Source of the DNA: a virus
Length of the DNA stretch: 21,713 nucleotides
Reading direction: 5' to 3' (one strand)
Virus record (IMG/VR): IMGVR_UViG_3300048080_000657
A model generated the notes under the pieces. It worked only from the letters and a program-made list of their open reading frames with translations. It was not told the DNA's origin and ran no database searches. The translations under genes were made by a program, and so were the position numbers. Shown in pieces: positions 1 to 18,599 of the stretch; position 1 is the first letter of the stretch; every line of letters starts with the position of its first letter.

Positions 1-333
1 GCCGGAGACGCCACTGTAGCCCGACACGCCCGAGTAGCCCGAGGTCCCCGAGACGCCGGAGAATCCGCTCACCCCCGAGTAGCCGCTGACTCCCGAGAAC
101 CCGCTGATCCCGGAGAAGCCGGAGGCTCCAGGGTTTGCCCCCGAATATCCGGAGACCCCCGAGTAGCCCGACGTCCCGGACACGCCCGAGTAGCCGGAGA
201 CGCCACTGTAGCCCGACACGCCCGAGTAGCCCGAGGTCCCCGAGACGCCGGAGAAACCGCTCACCCCCGAGTAGCCGCTGACTCCCGAGAACCCGCTGAT
301 CCCGGAGAAGCCCGAGGCTCCAGGGTTTTCCCC
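1..333. repeat. 192-bp (64-codon) near-identical tandem duplication inside the fibre gene
   Basis: 1-141 matches 193-333 with about 3 substitutions. Each unit has a G-[A/E]-N-P-G break in the SGX triplet register. Confidence 0.85.
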
Positions 334-939
334 GGAGAATCCGGAAACTCCCGAGTAGCCGGATGTTCCCGAAGCACCGGAGTAGCCGGAGACACCCGAG
401 TAACCCGAAGTCCCTGACGCGCCCGAGTAGCCGGACACTCCTGAGTAGCCAGAGGTCCCCGAGACGCCGGAGAAACCGCTCACCCCCGAGTAGCCCGAGG
501 TCCCGGCGCCACCCGTGCCCGAGTAGCCAGACACGCCCGAGAAACCCGAGGCTCCGGCACTACCCGTGCCCGAGTAGCCCGACACCCCCGAGAAACCTGA
601 GGCCCCGGTGCCACCTGCGCCGGAATATCCACTCACCCCCGAGTAGCCCGAGGCCCCGGCACCCCCCGTGCCGGAGTAGCCCGAGATCCCGGAAAACCCG
701 GACGCACTGCCCCCTCCGCCTCCCGAGAACCCGCTGATCCCGGAGAAGCCGGAGGCTCCCGGGCCGCCGCCTCCTCCGCCTGGCGCTGCGGGGACACCTC
801 CGCCCCCTCCGCCTCCGGGCAGGGTGGCCCGGAGCTCGATCGCGCAAAGATCGCGGAGGCGCACGGCGTCATCCGGATCCCGTGGTTGGCCGACGCGGCG
901 GACGCGGCCGCCTTTCATGTCCTTGTCGAGGTTGCTCAT
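1..939 (-). CDS. Gly/Ser-rich (S-G-X)n repeat fibre/spike protein, 3' end runs off the window
   Basis: Not in the ORF track because it is truncated. ATG at 939 reads MSNLDKDMKGGRVRRVGQPRDPDDAVRLRDLCAIELRATLPGGGGGGGVPAAPGGGGGGPGASGFSGISGFSG..., then SGY/SGF/SGV/SGT triplets towards position 1. The N-terminus resembles the 'MxGxRIxxVxxPxxxxDAV' motif of phage fibres. Confidence 0.85.
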   Translation of the reverse strand, partial: MSNLDKDMKGGRVRRVGQPRDPDDAVRLRDLCAIELRATLPGGGGGGGVPAAPGGGGGGPGASGFSGISGFSGGGGGSASGFSGISGYSGTGGAGASGYSGVSGYSGAGGTGASGFSGVSGYSGTGSAGASGFSGVSGYSGTGGAGTSGYSGVSGFSGVSGTSGYSGVSGYSGASGTSGYSGVSGYSGASGTSGYSGVSGFSGENPGASGFSGISGFSGVSGYSGVSGFSGVSGTSGYSGVSGYSGVSGYSGVSGTSGYSGVSGYSGANPGASGFSGISGFSGVSGYSGVSGFSGVSGTSGYSGVSGYSGVSG

Positions 940-1085
940 CTGGACAGTTTGCGTACCTGCTTCCGCAAGTCCTGGATCGCGTTGACCAGAAAAAAGACGA
1001 TCGGCGTCGGGTCGATCTTGAGGATATCCGTCTCCGCCCCCTCAGGATAGAGTTTATCGCGACTGAGCGTTTCTGTCTCCGCCAA
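936..1085 (-). other. 49-aa ORF or remnant resembling the C-terminal part of an S74-type intramolecular chaperone domain
   Basis: TTG at 1085 gives (M)AETETLSRDKLYPEGAETDILKIDPTPIVFFLVNAIQDLRKQVRKLSR*. The stop overlaps the ATG of the fibre gene (ATGA). No clear RBS. Confidence 0.5.
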
Positions 1086-1626
1086 AGAGGATGAGAAGGA
1101 GCGCGATCGCGCCCAGGCCGATGAGCGGGATGAGGAGGATCAGGTCCGGCGCGTCTGCGGGACGGGCGGTGCCCATGCGGCCTCCGGAGACAGCCCCCGA
1201 CGTGCCTAGATCCGGCACGCCGCCCGTGTGCCTCCTGATCCTTGATGCCGCCTCCGAGAGGAGCCCCTCGGCCCGCCGTAGCTTGCTGAGGCCCTGGAGC
1301 GTCAAGTCGACGGGCCTTCCCTTCGCAGCTGCATGCTCGAGAGCGTCAAGCACCCGGTCCATGGCGCCGGCCTCAAGCATCGCTGAGAGTTCGATCGCGA
1401 TCGTCTCGACGCCGGCGGCGCTGGCAAGGTCACGGTCGGAGTCCACGAACTCGACGAGCCGGGCCTCCCCGTCCATGACGGACCGGCAGAGGCGCATGAG
1501 ATCGATCGCCGTTCGTTCATCGAACCTCTGGAGGTCCGGGGGCGGCCGAAAACCGAGCGCGAGGGCCTTGGCGGCCGCGGAATCGCCGCCCCCCTTCTGG
1601 CCCGGGAAAGGCAGAACTTGTCCCAT
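1054..1626 (-). CDS. Hypothetical membrane-anchored protein (C-terminal TM helix)
   Basis: 190 aa, helical, with C-terminal LILLIPLIGLGAIALLLILF. AAGG-like RBS upstream. Co-oriented in the structural operon. Confidence 0.75.
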   Translation of the reverse strand: MGQVLPFPGQKGGGDSAAAKALALGFRPPPDLQRFDERTAIDLMRLCRSVMDGEARLVEFVDSDRDLASAAGVETIAIELSAMLEAGAMDRVLDALEHAAAKGRPVDLTLQGLSKLRRAEGLLSEAASRIRRHTGGVPDLGTSGAVSGGRMGTARPADAPDLILLIPLIGLGAIALLLILFGGDRNAQSR

Positions 1627-1659
1627 GTAGTACCTTTACAAATTAGCCGTGGAGAGTCG

Positions 1660-2037
1660 TCACGCCAAGATGTCTCCGTATACGCAGATGTCAGCCGAGG
1701 CGGCCGCTCCCTGCGCCGTCGTCAGCGAAAAGTAAAGCGTCGACTCGGTCCGGACGTCCGTTCCGAGGATCGCGGCAAGCGTGAGATCCAGGAACTTTGA
1801 TGACGCGGTCAGAAACGTGTAGCCCTGGGTAGCGGCGACGATAACCGTCCCACCCTTTGACGCAGCCGTGTAGAAGCCTCCCACAGCTGTCGTCAGGCTG
1901 ATGGACGCATTCCCAACAACGATCCGACGGACGACATACCGGGCGTACGGAACGGCGATGGCCTGATCGCCGGTCGTGTTCATGTTCGCGCCGATGAAGG
2001 AACCCAGAAGGATTCCGGATCCGGGTTGATAAGTCAT
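1660..2037 (-). CDS. Beta-rich virion structural/decoration-like protein
   Basis: ATG at 2037 overlaps the upstream TGA (TGATG). The ANMNTTGDQ...NASISLTTAVGGFYTAASKGG...ADICVYG pattern is typical of small phage structural proteins (recognised from memory, not searched). Confidence 0.75.
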   Translation of the reverse strand: MTYQPGSGILLGSFIGANMNTTGDQAIAVPYARYVVRRIVVGNASISLTTAVGGFYTAASKGGTVIVAATQGYTFLTASSKFLDLTLAAILGTDVRTESTLYFSLTTAQGAAASADICVYGDILA

Positions 2038-2387
2038 CAGAGTATCCACCACTGCGTGCCGTCGCTGATGATCGTGAACGACGCGTAGAGCACCGAGAGG
2101 ACCTGCGTCAGGAGGCCGTCAATAGTCTCCGCACCGGCCGCGTCGATGGTCACGATGCTCAAGGTGTTGACCTTCTTGATCGTGTACATCTTGTTGACTG
2201 CGGTCGCCGCTGCGGGCAGGTTGACCGTTATCGCATTCAACAACGTGTCGCAGAGGACGACGACGTCGTCCAGGTCAAGCGTGACCGCGACTGCGGTCAC
2301 CGTCCGGGTGGACTGGATCCTTGCGGGGCGATATTCGATCTGGCCGCCACCCCCGTCAATCCTGTCGATGGCCTCGTATTCGCCCAC
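2037..2387 (-). CDS. Small fibre/spike-associated beta-sandwich protein
   Basis: Contains the D..AITVNLPAA...YTIKK...VTIDAAGAETIDG...Y.S.TIISDGTQWWI signature common in phage fibre modules. GTG start overlaps the upstream TAG. Confidence 0.8.
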   Translation of the reverse strand: MGEYEAIDRIDGGGGQIEYRPARIQSTRTVTAVAVTLDLDDVVVLCDTLLNAITVNLPAAATAVNKMYTIKKVNTLSIVTIDAAGAETIDGLLTQVLSVLYASFTIISDGTQWWIL

Positions 2388-3232
2388 TATGCTCTCCTGA
2401 AGTCGAAACGGCCCGCGTTTTCGACGATCGCGATGGTTCCGCCGAACGTGTCGGCACCGTCCGCCCCCAGGCGATCGAGGGCGAGATTGATCTTGTCTGC
2501 CGCCGCCATGAGCGCCGCGGAGAGCGTGAAACTCATCTGGTCCATCCGTTTGTCGGTTCCGATGACCGCAACCGTCTGCAGCAGTGTCTCATCGGCGGCC
2601 TTGCTCGTCAACTCGCCGTTGGCGATGTACCGGCAGGTGAGGCGCATCCGGACGTTTCCGTCCGCGGCGGCCGTGAACACAAAATAAGGAATCTGGATGT
2701 CCGGGTTCACCGTCAGGTCGATGTTCCGAGGGATGAGGAACGTGGTGACGACGCCCCTCGTGACTCCATCGATGAGATTGAACCCGAAGACGTTGTCTTC
2801 GGAGACGCGGCTTGGGCTGGGCGGCGGCGATGCAACCCACTCGACGGGATCCGAGACATTGGCGGTGCCGGAGAAACCGCTCACGCCAGAGATTCCGCTG
2901 TAGCCGGACGTCCCTGATGCGCCGGAGTAGCCAGAGACGCCACTGTAACCAGAGACCCCCGAGAAGCCCGAGGCTCCCGAGGCGCCGGAGTAGCCAGAGA
3001 TCCCGGAAAACCCGGATGCGCCGCCTGGCGCTCCGGAAATGCCGGAGTAGCCGGATAAGCCGGGGGCGCCGGGGGTGCCGCCGCCGCCCGAGAACGGGAA
3101 GCCAGCTACCCGGAGTTCCGGGCAGAGGAGCCGTGCGAGTTCGCAGAGGTCTCCGAGGCTGACGGGGTCGCCGGCCCATAGAGTTTTTCCCTGCTGCGTC
3201 TTGACGGAGCCGTCGGGCCGGATCGTCGCCAT
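2387..3232 (-). CDS. Spike/fibre protein with (SGX)n stalk and C-terminal beta-rich domain
   Basis: 281 aa: N-terminal GDPVSLGDLC motif, about 65 aa of SGY/SGF/SGI repeats, then a beta-strand-rich C-terminal domain. Paralogous in layout to the 939..<1 gene. Confidence 0.85.
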   Translation of the reverse strand: MATIRPDGSVKTQQGKTLWAGDPVSLGDLCELARLLCPELRVAGFPFSGGGGTPGAPGLSGYSGISGAPGGASGFSGISGYSGASGASGFSGVSGYSGVSGYSGASGTSGYSGISGVSGFSGTANVSDPVEWVASPPPSPSRVSEDNVFGFNLIDGVTRGVVTTFLIPRNIDLTVNPDIQIPYFVFTAAADGNVRMRLTCRYIANGELTSKAADETLLQTVAVIGTDKRMDQMSFTLSAALMAAADKINLALDRLGADGADTFGGTIAIVENAGRFDFRRA

Positions 3233-3268
3233 CTTCTATTCGGATGCTGGAGCTTCAATCAAGGGCCT

Positions 3269-3670
3269 CTATGTAACTGGGAGCCCCGTTCCGCAGAGAT
3301 CGAAGATCGTCTGGGCCGAGCCCCCCGTATTCGTCGGCGTGATCCGCATGAAGTTTCCTGAGGGAAGGTGCCTCGCGGAGATCCTCTGGAGCGCCCCGGC
3401 TGCCACGGACGTGAGCGTCACGACCGTGACGTACGTCCCATCGCTTTCACAGGCTTCCTCGATGAGCACCGAGAACGGCTGATCCGAGATTCCCAGGAAG
3501 TTGACGGCGGAGTATCCGGCCACCTTCCTGCCGAGAGCCGCGGGCAACGGCGGCACGGGAGACGGCTGTGCCGGGATGACGATCGACGCGGCAGGCGCAA
3601 GGAGCGTGTTCACCGGAAGGACGAAAAGAGCTTCCGTCAGTTGCCGGCTCGGGACCGCGCTCTTGCCCAT
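3269..3670 (-). CDS. Small beta-rich structural protein (penton/minor capsid candidate)
   Basis: 133 aa with alternating hydrophobic beta-strand pattern. AAGGGA RBS. Lies between the capsid candidates and the spikes. Confidence 0.7.
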   Translation of the reverse strand: MGKSAVPSRQLTEALFVLPVNTLLAPAASIVIPAQPSPVPPLPAALGRKVAGYSAVNFLGISDQPFSVLIEEACESDGTYVTVVTLTSVAAGALQRISARHLPSGNFMRITPTNTGGSAQTIFDLCGTGLPVT

Positions 3671-3682
3671 GATTCCCTTTCG

Positions 3683-4258
3683 CTAGCAGCACGCCCACAT
3701 GCGGGCATGCAGGTGGAAGACCGCCTCGCTCGTCGGGTCGTGATTCACCGCATACAGGCTGAATCCTGCCTTGGGCGGCGTCACGATGTGCTCCGTGTTG
3801 ATGAAAAGGCCCGGGCCGCCTTCCGGCTCGAAGGGCAGGCACCATTCTCCGAACGATCCGAGATTGACCTTCTTGAACTCCGCCCCTCCGGATTCCGAGG
3901 CGGTGAGATTCTCCGGCAGGAGCCGGAGCTTCTCCACCACGAGCGCACGGTTCAGGGGGGCGCAGATCGAGATGGCCCTCGTCTCGGAGGGCTTGATCGT
4001 GCCGTCGGTATTGAAGGTCGCCGGCGGCACCACGATGTCACGGTCCACCACGGCGACGGGGTCGCAGACTCCCGGCCGGCTCGCGCAAAGCGGCTCGAGT
4101 GCGCCGAGAAGGTCGGCGATGCAGATCAGGTCGTCGAGGAGGGGAGACTTGTTTCTGACCCGGGTGACATTATCGGGAAGCTGCCCCGTGCAGCAGTACT
4201 TGATGTAATCCGCGAGCGTCATCCCGCAGATGCTCCCGTGGACGAGCTCGCCTGCCAT
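3683..4258 (-). CDS. Cys-rich beta-rich structural protein (second/minor capsid candidate)
   Basis: 191 aa, 10 Cys, GGAG RBS, beta-rich C-terminal half. First gene after the terminator. Confidence 0.75.
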   Translation of the reverse strand: MAGELVHGSICGMTLADYIKYCCTGQLPDNVTRVRNKSPLLDDLICIADLLGALEPLCASRPGVCDPVAVVDRDIVVPPATFNTDGTIKPSETRAISICAPLNRALVVEKLRLLPENLTASESGGAEFKKVNLGSFGEWCLPFEPEGGPGLFINTEHIVTPPKAGFSLYAVNHDPTSEAVFHLHARMWACC

Positions 4259-4273
4259 CGTTCGGTGCTCCGG

Positions 4274-4320
4274 AAAAAAGCCGCCGGAGGGGGGACGCTT
4301 GCGCGTCCCCCCTCGGCAGC
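4274..4320 (-). terminator. Intrinsic (rho-independent) terminator
   Basis: 12-bp perfect stem (4287-4298 / 4303-4314) with a GCAA (GNRA) loop on the minus strand, an extended imperfect stem, then UUUUUU (A-run at 4274-4279). Confidence 0.85.
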
Positions 4321-4347
4321 GATATGTCTACCGGACTGGCCGGGGAC

Positions 4348-5067
4348 CTACGAGCTCACGCCCGAGGCCGGGCCGAAGCTGACCGACGCCGCGGGCACCG
4401 CGGGCGAAACGGCCGGCTGCATGGCCGCGCCGAAGCTCGGCGGGCAGGGGTACGTGACCGGGTACGCCTGCTGCTGGGCATCGAGCGCTCCCACCCCGAA
4501 GAGGCAGCCCTGCCGCGCCTTCGTGGTGTAGTTGGCCAAAACCGCGCCGGTGTTGATGCGGATCGCTCCCGCGCCGGCCGGGACTCCCGTGATGGTCGCC
4601 TGGATGCGCGTGCCGTTGGGCAGGAAGAACATCTGGCACCCGCCGAGGAGCTCATCCTCGCCCTCGCCCAGGATGATCCGGATGTCCGCGACCGTGGTGG
4701 AGTTCGGGCTCGGCTGCACCGCGATCTGGCACGCCGGGCAGAGCAGGTGCTTCTCGATCGCGCTGTCGTTGACGACCTTCTCGCCGTCGATGGAGAAGGT
4801 GAAGCGCGCGAGGAAGAAGAGGCCCGCGTAGTCGAGGCTGACCGCGGTCAGGAGCTTCACGAACGGCAGGACGAACATCTTGGCATCGCAGACGGCGGAC
4901 GACGTCGTGGTGTCGAGGCTGGTCACGTTGAGCGCCGTCCCGCCCGACGTGAGGCCCGTGTCGACGACGAGCGACTGCTCGACGTCCGCGCGCCCCTCAC
5001 ACCGCATCGCGAAAGCGTTGCACGCGATGGGGTTGATCAGGGCCGCGTATTCCGGAGGCCTGAACAT
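4348..5067 (-). CDS. Candidate major capsid protein (beta-rich, possibly jelly-roll; not recognisably HK97)
   Basis: 239 aa, beta-strand-rich. Very strong RBS (GAAGGAGAAACATATG), followed by a terminator and preceded by a membrane protein gene. The capsid function is inferred from expression signals and context only. Confidence 0.6.
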   Translation of the reverse strand: MFRPPEYAALINPIACNAFAMRCEGRADVEQSLVVDTGLTSGGTALNVTSLDTTTSSAVCDAKMFVLPFVKLLTAVSLDYAGLFFLARFTFSIDGEKVVNDSAIEKHLLCPACQIAVQPSPNSTTVADIRIILGEGEDELLGGCQMFFLPNGTRIQATITGVPAGAGAIRINTGAVLANYTTKARQGCLFGVGALDAQQQAYPVTYPCPPSFGAAMQPAVSPAVPAASVSFGPASGVSS

Positions 5068-5216
5068 ATGTTTCTCCTTCGTTCCGTTCCCTTGTCGTAC
5101 GACCTACTGCACATTTACCGCCACTTCCACTGCATGCGCCCGGGTGCGTCACCGTCCGCCCCGAAGGCACCGCCTGCCTCCTCCCCCAGACGGGCCGGTG
5201 ACGCGGCCCCCGTGCG

Positions 5217-5876
5217 CTATGATGCGCGGGGAACCGCAACTACGCGCGGCGCCGGCTGCCCCTGCGGGCGGATCCTGGCCTGGATGTCGGCGAGCTTCTG
5301 CCGCGCTGCGAAGGCCGCGTCCGCACCCTGCCGGGGTGCGCCCGCGCCTCCCCTGAGCGCCGGCTTGCCCATGCCGACCTGGTCCAGGAGCCAGTCCACC
5401 ACGGCCCCGCCGAGGAACACCGCGCCCGGAAGGGCGACGCCCATCGTGAGCGAGTTCCTCTTGGCGAGGAGGGGGACCAGGCCGACACCGAAGGCGATCG
5501 CCTCGTGGGCGAGCCTCGAGTCGGTCTTGATGATGTCCGGCGTCACGCGTACGAGCGCGCGGCCGCCGGCGATGCCCAGGCCGATCCCGGTCAAGGCATC
5601 GGAGGTCTTGAGCTGCTCGGGCAGGCCGAGCCTCTGGCCCAGCGCCCAGCTTCCTCCCGACGAGGAGAAGCGGGACGCGTACCAGGGCCGGTATCCGCCG
5701 AACATCCCGGGCCTGTACCCGCCGGGCCGGTAGCCCTGGCGGGAAAGGGACCCCTTGTGGGCCCCGCCGGCCATGCCAGCGGCCTTGAGCTTCTTCTCGA
5801 TCGTCTCCCCGAGGTCGATCGTGACGTTGCCTTTGCCCGCGTCGCGGCCGGCGCCCTTCTGCGGCTTCTTGGTCAT
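5217..5876 (-). CDS. Basic N-terminal, multi-hydrophobic-segment membrane protein (putative virion membrane/core protein)
   Basis: 219 aa. AAGGAGG RBS. K/R/G-rich N-terminus with GYRP repeats, then Gly-rich hydrophobic segments. Confidence 0.8.
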   Translation of the reverse strand: MTKKPQKGAGRDAGKGNVTIDLGETIEKKLKAAGMAGGAHKGSLSRQGYRPGGYRPGMFGGYRPWYASRFSSSGGSWALGQRLGLPEQLKTSDALTGIGLGIAGGRALVRVTPDIIKTDSRLAHEAIAFGVGLVPLLAKRNSLTMGVALPGAVFLGGAVVDWLLDQVGMGKPALRGGAGAPRQGADAAFAARQKLADIQARIRPQGQPAPRVVAVPRAS

Positions 5877-5934
5877 TCCTGTGCCTCCTTAGAAAAGTGC
5901 CGGTCGGACGACGGGCCCGACCGCGCGTTTCGAC

Positions 5935-6180
5935 TCATTCACTCCGTCCCATGAGGATCCCGGTGGCCGCCGCGACCACCGCGACGACCGCGAGCCCGCC
6001 CCAGAAGGACGACCCGCCGGGTCCCACCTGCCCGAGCCCCGGACCCCGCTCCGAAAGGAACGTCCCGCGCCCCGCGGCGCCGTGGACCCTTCCGGCGAGG
6101 AACGGCCGCCGCCCGGATACCATGACCGGGACCGGCCTTCCGAGCTCGATGAGTTCCTCCGCCCCGAGCGTGCATCTCAT
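5935..6180 (-). CDS. Small C-terminally anchored membrane protein (81 aa)
   Basis: ATG at 6180 overlaps the upstream TGA (ATGA), with GGAGGT RBS. Reads MRCTLGAEELIELGRPVPVMVSGRRPFLAG...GPGLGQ...FWGGLAVVAVVAAATGILMGRSE. This is the 3' part of track ORF 5935..6594. Confidence 0.75.
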   Translation of the reverse strand: MRCTLGAEELIELGRPVPVMVSGRRPFLAGRVHGAAGRGTFLSERGPGLGQVGPGGSSFWGGLAVVAVVAAATGILMGRSE

Positions 6181-6914
6181 AGCGGCACCTCCACCTCCTC
6201 GTAAGCCTCGAAGGTCGAGACGTCGCCGAGCTTGTATCCCGGCTCGGTCAGGTCGGAGTCGTACCAGTTCCCGTCCGCCCAGACGCGCCCCCATACGTGG
6301 TGGAGCGTCCCATCGTTCCCTCCGAAGCGGAAGCGCACGGGCGTGATGTCCAGGCAGCAGCACATCGAAAGCATGAGGCAGACCGCTTCGTCGCAATCGC
6401 CGATGTAGGCCGGCGGCGGCGAGTAGCTCCCGCGGTAGAACGACGGCTCCGCCTCTTCCATGGCTGCGTAAAACGGTTCCATGATGTGTGCAAGGACTTC
6501 CCTGGCCATCCGCGTCGCCTTGGCCATCCGCCGGGGTGTCTGGATCACCTCCACGTTCGGCGGATCGTTCACGTAGCAGAAGTGGTGGCGGCACCAGATG
6601 TCGATGCCCTCGAGCATGATCGTCTTGTTGTTGTGCGCCGAGATCGGGTTCCCTTCGCGCGCCGACATTTCCTCGACGAACTTTGCATAGTGAACGGCCG
6701 CGAGGCGCGCGGTGTCGATGACGAGGGAATCCTTCCGCGCGTCCTGGACGTATTTCACCATCCGGCCGATCTGGAACCGGATGCCGTCGAACGTGTCGGG
6801 GAGCGCCGTGCGCCGCACCTCGCCGTCCACAGGCGACGGCGCCGACATGGCGTGCGCGCCTGCCCTTCCCGGGGCGCCCCGGAGGACATACCTCCGGCCC
6901 TGGTCGATGTTCAT
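6177..6914 (-). CDS. Transglutaminase-like superfamily cysteine enzyme (putative virion maturation protease)
   Basis: YVNDP...IQTP motif, catalytic GDCDE (Cys), HHVW (His) and WYDSD (Asp) in the order typical of the transglutaminase-like fold. Confidence 0.85.
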   Translation of the reverse strand: MNIDQGRRYVLRGAPGRAGAHAMSAPSPVDGEVRRTALPDTFDGIRFQIGRMVKYVQDARKDSLVIDTARLAAVHYAKFVEEMSAREGNPISAHNNKTIMLEGIDIWCRHHFCYVNDPPNVEVIQTPRRMAKATRMAREVLAHIMEPFYAAMEEAEPSFYRGSYSPPPAYIGDCDEAVCLMLSMCCCLDITPVRFRFGGNDGTLHHVWGRVWADGNWYDSDLTEPGYKLGDVSTFEAYEEVEVPL

Positions 6915-6933
6915 CCTTGCTGCTGCTCTCCGG

Positions 6934-9138
6934 TTACGGTTGCTTCACTACGCGAAGGCTCTCGCGCGTGGGGAGTGGGGTCCCCTGCGCCTCCTCGGTG
7001 ACCGTCTCATTGGCCGGACCGCGACCGGCGGTCTGCGCCTTGCGTGCTGCGAGGAACTCCTCCCAGTAGACCCTGATCTGCTCGACGACCATCGCCCGGA
7101 AACCCTCGTAGAAGTCCGCGGCATCCGGTTCTTTCTCGAAGATGCGGACCGTTTCCGGGTCCAGGTGCGGCTTGAGCGCCCTGAACATCTTCTCCCAGTT
7201 CCGCGGCCTCATGTAAGTCGCGAAAGCCGCGCAGGCCTTCCTGCCCTTGTCATCCTCGGGGTCGCGCATCCACTCGAGGTACAGGTTCGCGAAGCTCGTG
7301 GGATCGCTGCCGCTGTCGACGTGCAGCGCCCATTCCTGGATGACCTCGGCGAAGAACGGCTCCTTGAGCATACCTTGGATGATCTTGTCCATGCTGATCT
7401 CCCCCTCCGGCTCCTCGGTTCTCCCGTTCCCCGAGGGTGCCTGGGCCGCTGTCGCGCCCTGTCCCGGGGCCGGAGGCGCCTTCTCCCTCTTGTTGACATC
7501 GAGGACATTCCCGTCGATCGAGCCCCTCTCGATGGCGGCGGCCTGCGCCTCCGGGCTCATGTCTGCCGTTGCCTGGATTTTTTTCAGGTCGACGAAGCGC
7601 TCGAAGCCCTTGGCGATCTCCTTGGCGATCGTTCCGATCGTGTTCAGGACGAGATCACCTCCCTCCTTGGACATCGCCTCTTCGCGCGCCTCGAGAATCT
7701 TGATCTGCAGTTCGTGCTCACGGTCGAGGGCCTTCTCGCGCAACTTGTGCTCGCGGTCCAAGCCCTCGCGCTCCCGGTCGGCATCCGCGCCCACACTCTC
7801 GCGCGTCGCGGTGATCTCCTTCTCGGTCCGCTCGCGCATCTCCTTGACTTCGGCCGTCACCCTCTCCTGGGAGGCCTTGATCTCGGTGGACGTCTTGTCC
7901 TGGACATGCTGCATCTCATCGCGACTCCTCTTGAGTTCGCTCTCGAGGGCTTCTCGCTGGATCCTCGCCTCCTCGCGCATGTTCTGGAACTTCTTGTCCT
8001 CGAGTTCCGTCGATGTCTTGCGGTCCTCGGAGAGCCGTCTCGCGCGCGATTCCTCCTCCGCCTGGGCGAACTTGAGCCTCGATTCCGTCTCGGCCTGGAT
8101 CTGCTTGTACCGGGAGTCCGCCTCCTGGCGGATACGCTCGAGCTCGCGCTCGTGGCGCTTACGATCCTCTTCCTCGCGCCGCTCTGCCGCCGCGCGCTCC
8201 TCGCGCTGCCGGCGATCCCACTTCTCTTCCTCGTCCTTGCGGTGCTGAGCGTCGCGCTCACGCTCATCGGTCGTGCGCTTCTCTGTCAGGGCGTGCTGGC
8301 TCTTGAAGAATTCGGCCAGCGAGGTCTCCGGTCCGCTCTTCCTCGCCTCGCTCGCCTGCTTCATGTTCTCACGGGTGATCTCGCCGAGCGCCTTGATCGC
8401 CTCGTTCGCCGAGCTCTCCGCTGCGACCGAGCCGTGGCGCGCGAAGGCGAGGAGCTCGCGCTCACGCCCGTCGTCGCGCGGCTGCTCGTAGCCTTGCCGC
8501 AAAAAGGACGGCCGGTGGCCCTCCCCCTCTTCGTGTGCGCCTTGCGCGGCGCCGCGGTCCCACGGTCTCACGAAGGACTGCCGGGGCCGTTCCTGCCGGG
8601 ACTGCTGGGGCCACCTGGGAGGGCCGAAGGACGGCCCGATGCGAATATCCGTCTCGACAGCCCTGGTCTGCCCGGGATCGTAGCGATAGAGCCTGTAAAG
8701 CCCCTCGCCGTACTGCTGGCCAAGATTCATCTCGTCGAAAGGCGCCGTGTGCTGTCCGAGGATGCCGTCGGGCGGCGTCTTTCTCTCGACGGTGTACCGC
8801 GTGGTCAGGTTCGACGATGCAAGCGGCCCCCCGCTCTGCCTCCAGTCCCCGAACGAATCCGCCACGGGCGGGTGCGCTGGAGCCTGCTGCTGGGGAACGG
8901 GCGCGGATCCGCCGGACGGATTCATGGGGGCCTCCCGTTTCTTGGTGGGTTCGTGGGGCGGGATTGTCGGCAGCAGCCCCTTCCTTCGCGCTGTGCCAAC
9001 GAAGCCGTTGACACGTTGAGCGTCTTTTTTATGCAGGTTGAGCTGGTCGTTGATCTGGTTGATGGAGAAGCCGTCACGAGCGAGAGAGAGGACTTGATCC
9101 TTCTGCTCGTCCGTCAGGCCCTGAGGACGTTTGGCCAC
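6934..9138 (-). CDS. Large protein with N-terminal HTH-like region, long E/R/K coiled coil and helical C-terminal domain
   Basis: Likely GTG start at 9138 (GGAG 7 nt upstream). LTDEQKDQVLSLARDGFSINQINDQL is HTH-like, followed by roughly 250-300 aa of charged coiled-coil-like sequence. Confidence 0.85.
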   Translation of the reverse strand: MAKRPQGLTDEQKDQVLSLARDGFSINQINDQLNLHKKDAQRVNGFVGTARRKGLLPTIPPHEPTKKREAPMNPSGGSAPVPQQQAPAHPPVADSFGDWRQSGGPLASSNLTTRYTVERKTPPDGILGQHTAPFDEMNLGQQYGEGLYRLYRYDPGQTRAVETDIRIGPSFGPPRWPQQSRQERPRQSFVRPWDRGAAQGAHEEGEGHRPSFLRQGYEQPRDDGRERELLAFARHGSVAAESSANEAIKALGEITRENMKQASEARKSGPETSLAEFFKSQHALTEKRTTDERERDAQHRKDEEEKWDRRQREERAAAERREEEDRKRHERELERIRQEADSRYKQIQAETESRLKFAQAEEESRARRLSEDRKTSTELEDKKFQNMREEARIQREALESELKRSRDEMQHVQDKTSTEIKASQERVTAEVKEMRERTEKEITATRESVGADADREREGLDREHKLREKALDREHELQIKILEAREEAMSKEGGDLVLNTIGTIAKEIAKGFERFVDLKKIQATADMSPEAQAAAIERGSIDGNVLDVNKREKAPPAPGQGATAAQAPSGNGRTEEPEGEISMDKIIQGMLKEPFFAEVIQEWALHVDSGSDPTSFANLYLEWMRDPEDDKGRKACAAFATYMRPRNWEKMFRALKPHLDPETVRIFEKEPDAADFYEGFRAMVVEQIRVYWEEFLAARKAQTAGRGPANETVTEEAQGTPLPTRESLRVVKQP

Positions 9139-9230
9139 CGCAATCTCCACAACACGAGGAAGATTACGGCGCCTTCGTTAATGCCTACTGCACGTTACTT
9201 CGGCATCTCCGGGGGAGGAGACTGAACGGG

Positions 9231-9259
9231 ATTATGGGACGAACCGCGGGGGATGTCAA
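9231..9259 (-). promoter_or_regulatory. sigma70-type promoter for the structural operon
   Basis: TTGACA (9259-9254), 17 nt spacer, CATAAT (9236-9231). Confidence 0.85.
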
Positions 9260-9271
9260 GAGGAAAAACGA

Positions 9272-10639
9272 TCAACGAAGAAGAGCGAGGAGCCCGATGC
9301 CGACCGCGGCGATGCCGCCTCCTAGGAGGAGGTCCGTGATCGGGGCGCTCTCGTGCTCCAGCGGATAGAAGTCGTGCACGCCCACGTCCCGGGGATTGAT
9401 CTCCCTCTCGACCAGGCCCTCGCGGATGGCTTCTTCCTCCTCCGGCGCGAGACCGCGCGAGCGTGTCTCAGCAGCGGCCATCGCATCGATCGTGTCCGCG
9501 GCCCGGCGCGCCTCTGCCGCGAAGGCGGCGTCGTCCTGTTCGAACTGGCGCGCCACCTGCTCCATGTCCTCAGCCGCCTGCCGGCGCTCCTGGTACGCCA
9601 TCTCCTGGCCGATGATCTTGGTGGCTGCCTGGCCGACCTGCCCCGAGGACACGGCGGAGCCGACCGGGATCGCGGTCGAGAGTGCAATGCCGACGCCGAC
9701 GCCGATCACGATGAGCGCCGCGCCCAGGGCGATCTTGTTGATGATCGCCTTCCGCTTCTGTCTTTTCGCCCTGTCCTTCAGCACGGCCACGACCCAGCTC
9801 GAGACGCGGTTGTAGTTCTCGACGGTGAGGAGCGTCACCCAGAGGCGCGCGAGCTCCGGATGGATGTCGTAGTCGCTCTTCACGAACTTCACCAACTCGT
9901 CCCGCAACACCCAGAACCAGACGCCCGGCGCGGCCGAGATCGGACTCGGGAAAGGATAGTCGGCCAGGGCCGTCAGAAGGGAGATCGTATTACGGACCTG
10001 CCTGCGAACGTCGCCCCATTCGCCAACTCCTATCCTGAAGTATTTTCCGAATCCCGCTTCTCCGTGCGAGACATACCTGAACATCCAGGATCGCGGCATC
10101 TCAGAAGGCGGCGTGCAGAAGAATGGGTTAGCCTGGAGCGCGGCGATGTTCAGCCCTTGGTGACTTTCATCTCTAAGTAGTAGTAGTCGGTCCATCCGCC
10201 TGTCGGGGTCGGCGCCGCATAGACGACGCAGGAATGGCCAGTCTCTTTTCGGCTGTCTATCCTCCAGGATAGACTCTCCAAAGAAAGTATCGACGACGCC
10301 CAGGTCGGAGATCTCCGTGCGCGACGGACCGTTCGCTACCGCGGCCATCTGATCAAGAGTTTCCGAACCCCACTTGCGCAGGTCCTCTTGGCGAAACTCC
10401 TCGTATTCGCTGAGAATATCGTCGAGTATATCTGAGGCCTCTTCCGAAGCGGTCAGCCGACCCGGGATGACGAGACCGGCATCATCCGTAACCACCGCGA
10501 GCTGCCCGCGGGCGAGGAGGATGTCGACCGGAATCCCGAGGAGGCGGTTCTGGTCCGCTTGTGCAAGGAAAGGACGCCGCCGCGCGCCGAGCCCGCGGAC
10601 CTGGAGGACGTTGACCACGGGAAAAGGCCTCGTGCGCAT
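9272..10639 (-). CDS. Membrane protein with internal and C-terminal TM helices (putative virion/entry protein)
   Basis: Start placed at ATG 10639 because a promoter lies at 10650-10677. TM segments IALGAALIVIGVGVGIALSTAI and LLLGGGIAAVGIGLLALL. Confidence 0.8.
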   Translation of the reverse strand: MRTRPFPVVNVLQVRGLGARRRPFLAQADQNRLLGIPVDILLARGQLAVVTDDAGLVIPGRLTASEEASDILDDILSEYEEFRQEDLRKWGSETLDQMAAVANGPSRTEISDLGVVDTFFGESILEDRQPKRDWPFLRRLCGADPDRRMDRLLLLRDESHQGLNIAALQANPFFCTPPSEMPRSWMFRYVSHGEAGFGKYFRIGVGEWGDVRRQVRNTISLLTALADYPFPSPISAAPGVWFWVLRDELVKFVKSDYDIHPELARLWVTLLTVENYNRVSSWVVAVLKDRAKRQKRKAIINKIALGAALIVIGVGVGIALSTAIPVGSAVSSGQVGQAATKIIGQEMAYQERRQAAEDMEQVARQFEQDDAAFAAEARRAADTIDAMAAAETRSRGLAPEEEEAIREGLVEREINPRDVGVHDFYPLEHESAPITDLLLGGGIAAVGIGLLALLR

Positions 10640-10649
10640 CGTTCCCGAC

Positions 10650-10677
10650 ATTATACGGCCGTCGAACCGCGTTGCAA
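10650..10677 (-). promoter_or_regulatory. sigma70-type promoter (near-leaderless transcript)
   Basis: TTGCAA (10677-10672), 16 nt spacer, TATAAT (10655-10650). ATG lies 10 nt downstream of the -10. Confidence 0.75.
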
Positions 10678-10688
10678 GCATGGCGCCA

Positions 10689-10970
10689 TCAACGGTCGAA
10701 AAGTCCGTGTCCTGCCAGGCACTCGAGGACGCGACGGTCTCGGGCGTCGTTCGGCGTATCGAGGCATTTCTTGCAGATCACATAGGGCGCGGCCTTGTCC
10801 TCGATCTGGTTCCCGATCATCCGGCTCTTCGCGCGGTAGAGGGCGACGCGGCCGATGTCGGTCGCGCTCGCTCTCCTCTCGTAGCAGCAGGCGCACTGGA
10901 ACATGAGAGAGGACTGGACCCTCTCCGTGAATGCACGCAGCTGCTCGTCCTCGAATTTCTTGTCGGCCAT
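10689..10970 (-). CDS. Small Zn-finger-like protein
   Basis: 93 aa with CACC and CKKC pairs. Confidence 0.7.
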   Translation of the reverse strand: MADKKFEDEQLRAFTERVQSSLMFQCACCYERRASATDIGRVALYRAKSRMIGNQIEDKAAPYVICKKCLDTPNDARDRRVLECLAGHGLFDR

Positions 10971-10986
10971 ATCTCAGATGGTACAC

Positions 10987-11119
10987 GGAAGATTCCATTC
11001 GCGCAACGATCATCGAGATCGAAAAACCCGCGGAAGTTTCCAAGGTGCAGTTTCCCATGGAAATCCACAGGAACTTCCACGTGGAACTGCCCGGAAAGGT
11101 GATTCCGGGCCGAAATTCC
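10987..11119. repeat. Array of GGAA(N1-2)TTCC-like palindromic sites in an intergenic gap
   Basis: GGAAGATTCC 10987, GGAAGTTTCC 11032, GGAAATCC 11059, GGAACTTCC 11070, GGAACTGCC 11083, CGAAATTCC 11111. Confidence 0.6.
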
Positions 11120-11122
11120 GGG

Positions 11123-11539
11123 TTAATCCACCCCCTGAAGGCTCCTGACGTCCTGGGGGAGCCCCGCCCAGAGACATACCTCTTCCATGACGGGCTTCCC
11201 GGATTTGATCTCGTCCCGTGTGAGCGCGAGCGGTATCCACGGCGAGAGGACGATCGGCTTGACGCAGAGGTCCACGTGCCCGTCCGGAAAGCCGAACCGG
11301 ACTTTTGCGCGGGGATCAAGTTGCCGTTCCGTCTCCCCTCCGGTCCAGCCCAGGGCCTCCTCGAAGACCTTCTTGAGCGTGGCGATCTGTGCCGCCGTCA
11401 CGGAGACGGGTATGACAATGCCGACCGGGGTCGTCACGCGAATCACAGCGTGCGCATCCTTGAAGCCGTAACGACACTGAACCTTCGGCGAGAGTGCCTT
11501 TTCGAACGGCTCCCGCTTTGTCGTCGTTCCATCGCTCAC
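11123..11539 (-). CDS. Hypothetical protein (138 aa)
   Basis: GTG at 11539 overlaps the upstream TGA (GTGA), consistent with translational coupling. Confidence 0.6.
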   Translation of the reverse strand: MSDGTTTKREPFEKALSPKVQCRYGFKDAHAVIRVTTPVGIVIPVSVTAAQIATLKKVFEEALGWTGGETERQLDPRAKVRFGFPDGHVDLCVKPIVLSPWIPLALTRDEIKSGKPVMEEVCLWAGLPQDVRSLQGVD

Positions 11540-12009
11540 TTTTTTTCTTTCGCAGACCGGGGTTTCCGTGCCCCCTTGAGCGGCGAGGTACATGCGCTCT
11601 GCGTCTTCGTGAGGAGCAGATTGAGGCGCCCGTCGATCCTGTCCAGTCGCTCGCGGAGTTTCGGAATCTCCCCGGGGCCGAGGCGCCGGCGCGCGAGGGC
11701 AAGATTGAGGCTCTTAGCGTCCTCGGCTACGAGCCTGGCGAGGCGGGCGTTCTCTCCCATAGCGCCGTTCTGCTCGAGTGTCCGGGCCGCTATCCCCGCG
11801 AACCGCGCAGCCGTGTAGACCCCGGTCGCGACGTCGCGCAGGTCGACGCGCGCCCCCCGAGCCCTCGTCGCGCGTCCCTCTGAGACCAGGTAGCGAGCAA
11901 GCGTGATCCCGCAGCCGGCGTGCATGACCTGGTTGACTGCGGTCATGCAGCGCCCTGCGTGAGCGGCGATCTCCTTCGCCTGCGCCTCCGTGAGCGTGAG
12001 CTTCCTCAT
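11536..12009 (-). CDS. Hypothetical basic helical protein (157 aa)
   Basis: ATG at 12009 with GGAGGAGGA RBS and ATGA overlap with the upstream stop. Reads MRKLTLTEAQAKEIAAHAG... Confidence 0.7.
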   Translation of the reverse strand: MRKLTLTEAQAKEIAAHAGRCMTAVNQVMHAGCGITLARYLVSEGRATRARGARVDLRDVATGVYTAARFAGIAARTLEQNGAMGENARLARLVAEDAKSLNLALARRRLGPGEIPKLRERLDRIDGRLNLLLTKTQSACTSPLKGARKPRSAKEKK

Positions 12010-12590: not shown

Positions 12591-12618
12591 ATTCTACCAG
12601 ATCAGCCGGGAGAGTCCA
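12591..12618 (-). promoter_or_regulatory. Extended -10 promoter, leftward
   Basis: TGGACT, 16 nt spacer, TAGAAT (12596-12591) preceded by TGn. Confidence 0.65.
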
Positions 12619-12723
12619 GCGCAGGACGCGCCATCCGATACAACACTCTCAACCTGTAGTGTGCGGCTGCCCGTGGAACCACAAGAATCGGCTTTTATTT
12701 TTCGCGCCGGTGTCGCTGGTCGC

Positions 12724-12751
12724 TTGACACTTCTCCTTATCGCGCTAGACT
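12724..12751 (+). promoter_or_regulatory. sigma70-type promoter for the replication operon
   Basis: TTGACA (12724-12729), 16 nt spacer, TAGACT (12746-12751), with an AT-rich tract upstream. Confidence 0.75.
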
Positions 12752-12912: not shown

Positions 12913-14676
12913 ATGGCGGCACCGACACCGAGGGAGTTCTTTGAAGCCCTCTGGTCCGATATCCGAGGCGGCGACATCCTTCTCAGGCTGATCGGATGCG
13001 GACAGGATTCCGAGGTCGAGGTCCGCGATGTCAGGTTCGCATGGCCTGCCGGCATAGACGAGATGCTCGGTCGGGCTTTCATGGAAGCCGGCTGGAACGC
13101 CTACTACGGGATCGGCATACGCTCGGTCCAAGGAACCGGGCCGCATAAGGTGTTCGCCGTGCCCGCCCTCTGGCATACGTTCAACCTCAACGTCGTTCCC
13201 CTGGACAAGGCTGTCGGGGCGATCAAGGCGTTCCCATTGAGGCCGTCCGCGGGCTTTCGCGCGGGCGACGTCCTGACGGCCGTCTGGTTCATTGAAGGAT
13301 CCTTCTGCGGAGAGACGGAGTTGCGGGGTGTCTGGCCGGCGAACCTCAAGCTTGCCGCCAAGCTCATGGCGTCCCTGGGAGAAGCCGGCGGGCACGAGGA
13401 TCCCCTGCTCGTGAAGGCCAACCTAGCCGTGGAGCATCGCCAACCGCAAGGGGTGCTACGGGTTCCAGGCTCGACGAACTACGAGACGAGCCAGCCTCAA
13501 GCCGTCGAGTTCGTCTCGTGGAACCCGGGCCTGCGTCACGATTTCGAGCAGTTCTACAAAATCCTTGTGGACACGCCTGCCGTCGACAAGGAAGAACCGA
13601 AGGTCGAGCCGGCGAAGCCGACCAAGCCAAAGCAGGCTGCTGTGCCCGACGAGGACGAGGATGGCCCCAAGCCTAGGGACATCGCGACCGACCTCAACCA
13701 GAAGCTCGCCAACGCCATGACGAAGGTCTGGATCGAAGGCTTCCGCGAGAAGATAGCCATGCTCGTGGCCGGTGGCCTTGCCCACGGGAACTACACCAAG
13801 GAGGCGGCGCTGCGGCTCGTACGTGCCGTCTGCACGCTGACCGGGGACCCCGATATTCCGCGCTTCGAAGAGATCATCGAACGGACCTTCAAGAGGCACG
13901 ACGACGGGGACCGTGTTGCGGGATGGCCCACGCTCGAGAAACTGATCGACGAGTTCCCTGGTGCGCTCCGCGACGAGGCAAAGAGGGCGTTCGAACTCAT
14001 CCGAAAAAGCGTCCCGAAGCCGCCGAAAGGCGGGGGCGGGGGTGGAAGCAACGGCCGCGGCAGGGCCGACGAGCCCGACTTCGACATCGTCGAACTCGTG
14101 CGGTACACGAGCGAACCCGCCCGCTATAGGGTACACCTGAAGCTCCATGCCGAAAAGGCTGGAAAGACGGACCTCGATGTCCATGTCGAGGAGGGTGACG
14201 TCTACTCTTTCGATGCCTTCCGCGAGAAGACCTTCGGTCAGGCACACATTTACCTCGCCAAGGTCAGCCAGACGGCTTGGGAAGTGCTGGTGGAGAAGGC
14301 ACCGTTCAAGATCGAGGAGGCTCCTCCAGAGGCGAAACCGTCCGGGGCGATCGCCTCGGCGCTCGAGGAGTTTGTCGAGGACAAGAAAGAGGACCCGGAG
14401 TTGGGTGACCTGAAGAGCTACCCTGGCTATGACGAGACGGATGTCTTCTTCAGGCTCCCCACCTTCAAGGGCTTCCTCAAGGACCAGGGGGTGAGATTCA
14501 CGGACCGCGAAATCCTGCACCAGATCAAAGAACTGGGCTGGAAGCGGGAAACTAAGCGGTTTGGGCAGGCAACCGCGAAAATCTGGCTCAAGCCACTGCA
14601 GAACGGGCACACGGAAGAGAAGCCACCGGAAGGCCTGTTCGAACCCGGCACCGATGCATCTGGTGGGATGGCGTGA
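12913..14676 (+). CDS. RepB-like AEP primase homolog with degenerate catalytic motifs, PriCT-like and C-terminal wHTH-like regions
   Basis: AYYGIGIR, ALW, PS, VLRVPGSTN scaffold of RepB-type primases and a PriCT-like helical segment (...VAGWPTL). The expected DxD is replaced by ALWHTFN and SGxGxHxYW by RAGDVLTAVW. Confidence 0.75.
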   Translation: MAAPTPREFFEALWSDIRGGDILLRLIGCGQDSEVEVRDVRFAWPAGIDEMLGRAFMEAGWNAYYGIGIRSVQGTGPHKVFAVPALWHTFNLNVVPLDKAVGAIKAFPLRPSAGFRAGDVLTAVWFIEGSFCGETELRGVWPANLKLAAKLMASLGEAGGHEDPLLVKANLAVEHRQPQGVLRVPGSTNYETSQPQAVEFVSWNPGLRHDFEQFYKILVDTPAVDKEEPKVEPAKPTKPKQAAVPDEDEDGPKPRDIATDLNQKLANAMTKVWIEGFREKIAMLVAGGLAHGNYTKEAALRLVRAVCTLTGDPDIPRFEEIIERTFKRHDDGDRVAGWPTLEKLIDEFPGALRDEAKRAFELIRKSVPKPPKGGGGGGSNGRGRADEPDFDIVELVRYTSEPARYRVHLKLHAEKAGKTDLDVHVEEGDVYSFDAFREKTFGQAHIYLAKVSQTAWEVLVEKAPFKIEEAPPEAKPSGAIASALEEFVEDKKEDPELGDLKSYPGYDETDVFFRLPTFKGFLKDQGVRFTDREILHQIKELGWKRETKRFGQATAKIWLKPLQNGHTEEKPPEGLFEPGTDASGGMA

Positions 14677-14862
14677 AATCCCCTTATATATATACCCCTT
14701 TTCTGGAGATACACGGACCACCCCTTATGATCAATCGACTTTCAGGGGGAACATCGGTAACGCGGTCACAACAGGTGTATCTAGTTAATTGCCAAAAACT
14801 TACAGTGTTACCGGTGGGGTGGGTTATCGGGAACAGAAAACCGGTATATATATAAGGGGATT
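14677..14862. other. Putative replication origin: AT-rich region bounded by inverted repeats
   Basis: Perfect 20-bp IR AATCCCCTTATATATATACC (14677-14696 / 14843-14862), extending to 27/29 bp. Inner CGGTAAC/GTTACCG IR (14755-14761 / 14807-14813) flanks an AT-rich core. Confidence 0.65.
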
Positions 14863-14868
14863 GGGTCC

Positions 14869-18302: not shown

Positions 18303-18337
18303 CACAGGATGTCATAGCGTCCCTGTAGGAGTAACGT

Positions 18338-18565
18338 ATGACCGCGCAGGAGCTCAAGCCCAGGATTGAGGGGAAGGCCGGAGGATGCTTCCTCTGCAAG
18401 TGGACCGTCGAGGACCTGGACAAGAACGGGAAGCTGACTAACCATCCCGGGCAATGCAACGACGGCAACGACCTCTTCCCGGCCCGGGCCAAGGTGGCGC
18501 ATGCCTGGCTCGAGGGAGTCCTGACGCACGACGAGACGAAGGAGCTGCTTGAGACCTTAAAGTAG
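18338..18565 (+). CDS. Small hypothetical protein, possibly metal-binding
   Basis: 75 aa, AGGAG RBS, CFLC...HPGQC. Confidence 0.7.
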   Translation: MTAQELKPRIEGKAGGCFLCKWTVEDLDKNGKLTNHPGQCNDGNDLFPARAKVAHAWLEGVLTHDETKELLETLK

Positions 18566-18577
18566 ACTAGGTATACT
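18549..18577 (+). promoter_or_regulatory. sigma70 promoter with overlapping palindromic operator
   Basis: TTGAGA, 17 nt spacer, TATACT. AGTAGAC-TAG-GTATACT at 18561-18577. Confidence 0.75.
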
Positions 18578-18599
18578 GTATCCTTAGAAGGAGAAAGAC

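Follow-up and report, generated by a model that had tools for sequence, protein, structure and literature searches.

A conserved gene block with predicted single-jelly-roll proteins points to a family of giant, probably tailless bacterial viruses

The late gene block and its predicted jelly-roll proteins

We analyzed a 21,713-nt stretch of viral DNA (IMG/VR record IMGVR_UViG_3300048080_000657; hereafter, the window) whose positions 1-10639 carry 13 minus-strand genes in the map of open reading frames (ORFs). From position 1, this late block encodes a partial Ser-Gly fiber followed by proteins of 190, 130, 116, 281, 133, 191, 239, 219, 81, 245, 738 and 455 amino acids (aa), and it points away from a replication block (12913-19679) with genes for a primase-like protein, UvrD, an SF2 helicase and RecT. 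A first-pass annotation had described about 14 co-oriented, tightly coupled genes. The orientation stands and the count is 13; several starts overlap the preceding stop (2387, 6177-6180 and 2037-2052), yet gaps of 90-150 bp lie on both sides of the 239-aa gene. Family scans (ten genes against Pfam and PHROGs, the 455-aa gene as well, and nine genes against NCBIfam) returned only a collagen/fiber match (281 aa), a weak fiber/baseplate-type domain (116 aa) and Transglut_core (245 aa). As first reported, none of the block genes scanned matched terminase, portal, HK97 capsid or tail-tube families. We consider it likely that the block builds the particle of a family of giant, tailless, membrane-containing bacterial viruses.

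The candidate major capsid protein is the 239-aa product (4348..5067, minus strand), in which a single jelly roll is joined to a conserved C-terminal arm and eight cysteines are conserved. Its AlphaFold model (predicted local distance difference test, pLDDT, 76.8; 92-sequence alignment) contains one beta barrel at residues 7-181 and a flexible C-terminal arm. The best Foldseek match, and the only one in the PDB below 1e-3, was the SPV1 capsid protein (E 4.3e-4, probability 1.0). The capsid proteins of SH1, HCIV-1 and P23-77 were also listed, among other jelly rolls, as was Ena3A, a subunit of the Bacillus Ena appendage (E 3.6e-3), and the decoration proteins of KHP40, Pam1 and GP4 are present in the fold lists. 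With VIA-align the top Z-score was 6.7, and nucleoplasmin, an HHIV-2 chain, a baseplate domain, SPV1 and the STIV turret were tied; of the top-scoring rows, SPV1 aligned over the greatest length (140-145 residues; Z 6.0-6.2, root-mean-square deviation 4.2-4.4). Scores of this size (Z up to 6.7) identify the fold and not the lineage. The Atlas model of the protein was poor, and the new model reached a template-modelling (TM) score of 0.48 by query (0.53-0.58 by match) to unnamed viral clusters.

The 239-aa family comprises 95 relatives with 47-88% identity. Its gene has the highest codon adaptation index (CAI) of 20 window genes (0.84; GC content at synonymous third positions, GC3s, 0.95) and an AAGGAG site. 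In a closed relative of ~349 kb, described below, the orthologue ranks 4-5 of 243 by CAI and that of the 191-aa gene ranks 93 of 243. The gene is tandemly duplicated in four loci (L004, L033, L035 and L040), and three contigs of 236-353 kb end inside or next to it. The gene combines the strongest conservation and codon adaptation with tandem duplication in relatives, so the 239-aa protein is probably the single major capsid protein of the family.

The neighboring 191-aa protein (3683..4258, minus strand) combines a helical N-terminal arm with a single jelly roll and six near-invariant cysteines, and is a minor capsid or penton candidate. In its AlphaFold model (pLDDT 87.3) three helices precede the jelly roll, and the closest structures were GOLD domains (Z 8.6), an HHIV-2 chain (7.2) and Ena fibers (Ena2A, 7.0). 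The 239- and 191-aa families are without similarity to each other in profile comparison, and both keep conserved cysteines, six to eight of them. Codon adaptation, conservation and duplication together argue for one major (239 aa) and one minor (191 aa) capsid protein, and the 191-aa protein looks minor. In one relative, an IS605/TnpB-type gene (L005:11543-12766) is inserted immediately after the 191-aa orthologue. The 133-aa product (3269..3670, minus strand) is a small jelly-roll-type protein, often duplicated in relatives, and a candidate for a vertex or decoration role. Its Atlas model (predicted TM score 0.75) matched small, mostly viral clusters (TM 0.61-0.71), one with Bbp16 in 13% of its members and one linked to XepA by features. 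Given this beta-domain fold, we do not count its hydrophobic stretch as a membrane segment.

The first-pass annotation had called these three proteins beta-rich and had set structure prediction with Foldseek beforehand as the test of its reading. The models confirm beta-rich folds for the 239- and 191-aa proteins, with the 133-aa protein resting on Atlas-model matches, and the predicted folds are jelly rolls rather than HK97 or tail-tube. Thus, the predicted models place all three in the jelly-roll fold class. The further claim that the 239- and 191-aa proteins are capsid proteins of a divergent lineage goes beyond the scores, as structure alone proves neither lineage nor capsid function.

Synteny and genome size

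The order 156-(93)-738-enzyme-81-219-239-191-133-fibers recurs in more than 20 independent contigs, which argues against a chance arrangement, and the 219-239-191 order is maintained down to 25-35% identity. The contigs bearing this module measure 131, 140, 156, 191, 216 (the contig of the window itself), 242 and 353 kb (the last being Ga0534158_0000003, 352,816 bp). Two IMG/VR records (3300005544_000020 and 3300025930_000007; contigs G001 and G002) overlap over 153,090 bp at 99.999%, and their other ends overlap by exactly 82 bp inside the 239-aa gene. These overlaps close a circle of ~349.4 kb, with collapsed tandem copies possible at the 82-bp joint. The module therefore belongs to genomes of 0.2-0.35 Mb, and not to the small scale implied by the original comparison to PRD1/PM2- or Halopanivirales-like viruses. 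We found no published description of the family in the literature searched, which was covered incompletely, and no match to it among GenBank phages.

The ~349-kb relative carries ~630 genes, as predicted by a purpose-made simple gene caller, and ~45 tRNAs, including one with a CUA (amber) anticodon (L014:13483-13556). The 55 kb that follow its 191-aa gene hold at least five fiber paralogues and a cluster of 47 genes, 24 of them with membrane segments. Glycosyltransferases and a fatty-acid desaturase are also encoded; a large sugar-nucleotide/glycosyltransferase cluster, with a four-domain 1211-aa glycosyltransferase and the desaturase, lies at 72-110 kb and 26470-30105 of G002. Among the matches listed in Pfam, PHROG and NCBIfam scans (best 25 families per scan; for PHROGs, the best 25 of 62 and the best 25 of 51), the long and late proteins were enzymes, fibers and unknowns. 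Pooled scans of both contigs also matched a Ro/TROVE protein, an ice-binding protein and a response regulator.

Stand-alone copies of the 239-aa family also occur in early/replication regions of relatives (L016:13584-14324, which is G001 213584-214324, and loci L070, L073, L087, L088, L089 and L101). They are 180-360 aa long, the best full-domain ones have 28-47% identity, and ~100 such proteins are present in the 50% library. These copies may be capsid-derived decoys that interfere with competing viruses. In two early-strand genes of G001 (98927-99463 and 42122-42661), either the 239-aa protein's C-terminal arm motif or the fibers' N-terminal module reappears, which suggests that these elements are reusable docking peptides.

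The sigma-70-type promoters and Shine-Dalgarno sites of the window genes indicate a bacterial host. Two candidate hosts were not accepted: the Planctomycetota assignment of an 8.7-kb contig and the Ca. Sericytochromatia assignment of a 27.7-kb contig, in which all recognizable genes match the virus family. Both look like binned viral contigs. The source is a sediment, with a depth of ~120x in run X1.

Searches for tailed-phage hallmarks and a packaging motor

The whole-genome searches used the closed ~349-kb relative rather than the genome of the window itself. With positive controls, this relative gave no match to Terminase_6N, TerL_ATPase, Terminase_3, Terminase_6C or GpA (very divergent forms may escape), to Phage_portal or Phage_capsid, to sheath or tape measure (tail-tube families were not searched one by one), or to PHROGs 2, 10 and 12 (terminase, major head and portal). 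The first-pass annotation had held that terminase or portal genes in flanking sequence would speak against a tailless virus; none was found in the closed relative.

A packaging ATPase of the FtsK/HerA/A32 type, which the annotation had proposed to look for, was likewise missing from the module, and none was present in the window or the syntenic loci. The 349-kb relative has only one HerA, in an unlinked, early position. This HerA/DUF87 protein (603 aa) lies among early accessory genes and is the sole candidate for a packaging motor; a HerA of ~600 aa was found in two relatives (38% identity). The protein matched PHROG 2666, labelled terminase (E 4e-11), over the C-terminal part of the PHROG only. 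We rejected the terminase label because the match is partial, Pfam assigns DUF87, no terminase nuclease matched and the setting is early and accessory.

A candidate maturation enzyme and late membrane proteins

The 245-aa product (6177..6914, minus strand) is a transglutaminase-like Cys-His-Asp enzyme that could act as a maturation protease or cross-linker. Its match to Pfam PF01841 (Transglut_core, E 4.5e-4) lies under the cut-off. All active orthologues retain Cys174 and His206, and conserved Asp residues are found at 219-221. The enzyme and the spikes of the first-pass annotation are both borne out, the former by this match with an intact triad and the latter by the collagen/fiber matches. 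Many relatives have an adjacent extra copy without the catalytic Cys. In one locus, an intein (L091:8542-10335) is placed exactly at the catalytic Cys; the enzyme is an unusual intein host, and the insertion marks the site as conserved and probably essential.

An N-terminal [LMI]GQ motif is present in 17/47 late proteins of the 349-kb relative versus 36/528 elsewhere (P 7e-8, an optimistic value because motif and region were chosen by eye). An [LMI]G site is kept in 29 of 38 orthologues of the 219-aa protein. Conservation of the 81-aa membrane protein (5935..6180, minus strand) starts sharply at an invariant LGA (25/25 orthologues). Since the following residue varies (Q, A, E, D, R), cleavage after Gly fits better than Gln cross-linking, and we predict that the Cys-His-Asp enzyme cuts at or near [LMI]G; a sorting signal is also possible. 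Adenovirus and poxvirus maturation proteases cut after Gly.

By best 19-residue hydropathy, membrane segments are clear in the 190-aa (3.05), 81-aa (2.09) and 455-aa (2.46) proteins and borderline in the 219-aa protein (1.77). Thus, three of the at least four membrane proteins claimed earlier are clear and the fourth is probable only. The latter (5217..5876, minus strand) is basic, has both an LG motif and a hydrophobic segment rich in Gly, and is a candidate major membrane or core protein. Its gene is in the second tier of codon adaptation and directly precedes the 239-aa gene wherever upstream DNA could be seen, tandem copies aside. The 190-aa protein (1054..1626, minus strand) has a C-terminal membrane anchor, and its gene is kept just before the fiber in five loci. 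The 455-aa protein (9272..10639, minus strand) is poorly conserved and dispensable in many relatives. The late membrane-segment genes of the 349-kb relative (24/47) compare with 36/528 elsewhere in that genome, an enrichment that bears indirectly on a putative inner lipid membrane.

A model for the particle

We propose that the late, particle-building operon of viruses of ~200-350 kb, circular where closed, begins with this block. Capsomers of the 239-aa protein would form most of a large shell; scaling from SH1-type (PMC12643093) and SPV1 dimensions predicts 180-225 nm for a 349-kb genome, given packing as in those viruses. The 191- and 133-aa jelly rolls would form vertices or decoration, and collagen-like fibers, glycosylated by virus-encoded enzymes, would dock via their shared N-terminal module. 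The 219-aa protein and ~25 anchored proteins could build the inner membrane, and the Cys-His-Asp enzyme would mature the particle proteins by cutting at or near the [LMI]G motif. As no packaging ATPase resides in the module, the genome would most likely be wrapped rather than pumped, with membrane and shell closing around it as in SPV1; as a fallback, the early-region HerA could pump it. Direct support covers the jelly-roll folds, conserved gene order, genome size, failure to detect tailed-phage hallmarks, abundance of late membrane proteins and intact triad of the enzyme. The tailless, membrane-containing virus of the first-pass annotation is retained, with jelly-roll folds predicted and no terminase or portal found, but with corrections to the genome size, to the roles of the 239- and 191-aa proteins and to the expected packaging ATPase.

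In its workings, the proposed particle comes nearest to portogloboviruses and sphaerolipoviruses. Portogloboviridae (SPV1) offer the closest parallel to the 239- and 191-aa pair, with a single-jelly-roll major protein (VP4) in hexamers, a minor one (VP10) in pentamers, a nucleoprotein core, an inner lipid layer and circular dsDNA. The unequal codon adaptation of the 239- and 191-aa genes and their lack of profile similarity resemble this arrangement more than the two-major pair of the Halopanivirales. SPV1 has an archaeal (Sulfolobales) host and a ~20-kb genome that is co-assembled with the particle (PMC8459092), whereas the genomes studied here are 10-17 times larger, show no sequence similarity to it and encode a putative maturation protease as well as tRNAs and genes for replication and glycosylation. 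Contigs of 131-353 kb and sigma-70 promoters place the family outside the size and host range of Portogloboviridae. The Halopanivirales/Singelaviria (SH1, HHIV-2, HCIV-1 and P23-77) also have adjacent single-jelly-roll genes by a conserved membrane-type protein, spikes and many membrane proteins. In the ICTV profiles consulted, their genomes are 16-31 kb; they have an internal membrane in an icosahedral tailless virion, a pair of co-major capsid proteins that form heterodimers and a packaging ATPase that is conserved (PMC12643093 and PMC12714852), in contrast to 200-350 kb, probably one major protein and no ATPase linked to the module here. Against vertical jelly-roll capsids, the 239- and 191-aa models scored Z 5.0-7.2, tied with unrelated jelly rolls, and there was no sequence match. 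The best reading is that the module virus is not a member of the Halopanivirales. Unlike the double-jelly-roll PRD1/PM2 viruses (Varidnaviria), each model has one barrel (only the 239- and 191-aa proteins were folded).

Several observations weigh against a tailless, membrane-containing virus. The Z-scores of the 239-aa model are all below 7, level with nucleoplasmin, baseplate and enzyme domains, and the 191-aa model is nearest to GOLD domains. Small jelly rolls also serve as cement and fiber proteins in tailed phages, and the divergent 239-aa copies that occur singly in early regions are unusual for a capsid gene. PDB sequence and GenBank phage searches gave no sequence link of the module to any solved capsid or isolated phage; PDB searches with a wide 239-aa profile, the 245-aa enzyme and a conserved 387-aa late protein returned nothing useful. 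The whole-genome hallmark search covers one genome, that of a relative. In it, FtsK/A32 packaging ATPases and the SLT and amidase lysis genes were not found (other lysis families were not searched).

The lack of a packaging ATPase and of SLT or amidase genes would also suit a giant extrachromosomal element, Borg- or megaplasmid-like and with no icosahedral virion, whose cysteine-rich jelly rolls form disulfide-linked fibers or the coats of vesicles or a pleomorphic particle. The resemblance of the 239- and 191-aa proteins, with their conserved cysteines, to Bacillus Ena subunits points the same way. The Borgs of Methanoperedens, giant elements with several jelly-roll capsid-like proteins, sugar/lipid genes and a still unresolved packaging machinery (PMC12660748), come closest as a precedent for proteins of this kind on a giant prokaryotic element. 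However, Borgs are linear with terminal repeats and archaeal, whereas this family is circular where closed and has bacterial promoters, ribosome-binding sites and tRNA arrays. The layout is phage-like (a divergent replication/recombination block, hundreds of small early genes, a late fiber block and tRNA arrays), relatives are catalogued as viruses in IMG/VR, and no conjugation module appeared among the long ORFs scanned (best 25 of 33 families). We regard this explanation as unlikely. Slightly less probable again is a tailed jumbo phage with head and tail genes too divergent for profiles and jelly rolls that are decoration proteins. Caudoviricetes of jumbo size share the genome size, tRNA arrays, RecT, helicases, many small early genes and collagen-like fibers, the fold lists include the three decoration proteins named above, the relative's HerA matches a terminase-labelled PHROG, and the PHROG scans cover only the best-scoring families. 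Yet terminase, portal, HK97 capsid, sheath and tape measure went undetected, the HerA match has the features for which we rejected its label, and a decoration gene would not be the most conserved gene. Moreover, almost every late-strand protein of at least 300 aa is a fiber or fiber-like, a glycosyltransferase, a membrane protein, a probable Ro-type RNA-binding protein (from the pooled scans) or the 738-aa orthologue, so that hardly any proteins remain that could supply capsid, portal, terminase and tail between them.

An oversized true member of the Halopanivirales/Singelaviria, with two co-major capsid proteins and a HerA-type motor, could account for the two neighboring jelly-roll genes after a conserved membrane-type protein, the HHIV-2, HCIV-1, SH1 and P23-77 chains among the fold matches and the ~600-aa HerA of two relatives. 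Nonetheless, the 191-aa gene is far less codon-adapted than the 239-aa gene and unrelated to it by profile, and HerA is unlinked to the module and has extra C-terminal domains, making this the least probable of the explanations. We see an evenly balanced case for a separate high-rank lineage of bacterial giant viruses: genomes of 200-350 kb, ~200-nm membrane-lined and glycosylated single-jelly-roll particles, motor-free assembly around the genome and maturation by a transglutaminase-fold protease at LG, converging on the build of eukaryotic giant viruses.

Large phage genomes are assumed to need an HK97 head and a terminase motor. A giant tailless family would break that link: it would be widespread, ~10 times larger than the classified single-jelly-roll membrane viruses compared here, and would indicate that jelly-roll shells scale to giant size in bacteria and that some records catalogued as jumbo phages are not tailed. 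Filtration at 0.22 micron and chloroform steps would remove lipid particles of ~200 nm, a possible reason for the lack of an isolate. Both the capsid candidate and the enzyme are small enough for direct expression and testing.

Other features of the window

The 738-aa protein (6934..9150, minus strand) has a helix-turn-helix-like N-terminal part, a long charged helical stalk and a conserved C-terminal domain. It had no Pfam, PHROG or NCBIfam match and is a candidate scaffold, ruler or genome-tether. A sigma-70-type promoter precedes its gene (9231..9259, minus strand; 11/12 consensus) and another lies at 10650..10677 (minus strand; 10/12 consensus). Upstream, two small conserved genes for a 93-aa Cys-rich and a 156-aa protein (10689..11593, minus strand) are the first genes of the block in relatives. 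Divergent sigma-70-type promoters (12591-12751) separate the late and replication blocks. The primase-like protein (12913-14676) has weak family matches only; its homologue in the 349-kb relative has a weak RepB primase match, and that genome also encodes two UvrD paralogues, with no replicative DNA polymerase seen among its long ORFs. Between the primase-like and UvrD genes, a 29-bp inverted repeat (14677-14862; 93%), with AT-rich arms 128 bp apart, is a candidate replication origin.

The 281-aa spike or fiber (2387..3232, minus strand) combines a family-wide N-terminal docking module, a collagen-like stalk and a C-terminal head (Pfam Collagen, E 2e-8; PHROG 5073), and its N-terminal module is common to at least five fiber paralogues of the 349-kb relative (E 1e-7). 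The 116-aa protein (2037..2387, minus strand) has a fiber-type domain (PHROG 37034, E 9e-7; baseplate PHROG 20556, E 1e-3). The small 130-aa protein (1660..2052, minus strand), for which Pfam and PHROGs gave no family match, is a probable vertex or fiber accessory. The Ser-Gly-repeat (collagen-like) fiber or spike (1..939, minus strand) runs off the window start, and its N-terminus is 75% identical to a 783-aa fiber of the 349-kb relative. Ser-Gly-aromatic repeats with periods of 9, 18 and 51 nt, plus a 192-nt duplication, occupy positions 1-780 and 2840-3076; many variant contigs pile up at these repeats, which probably broke the assembly.

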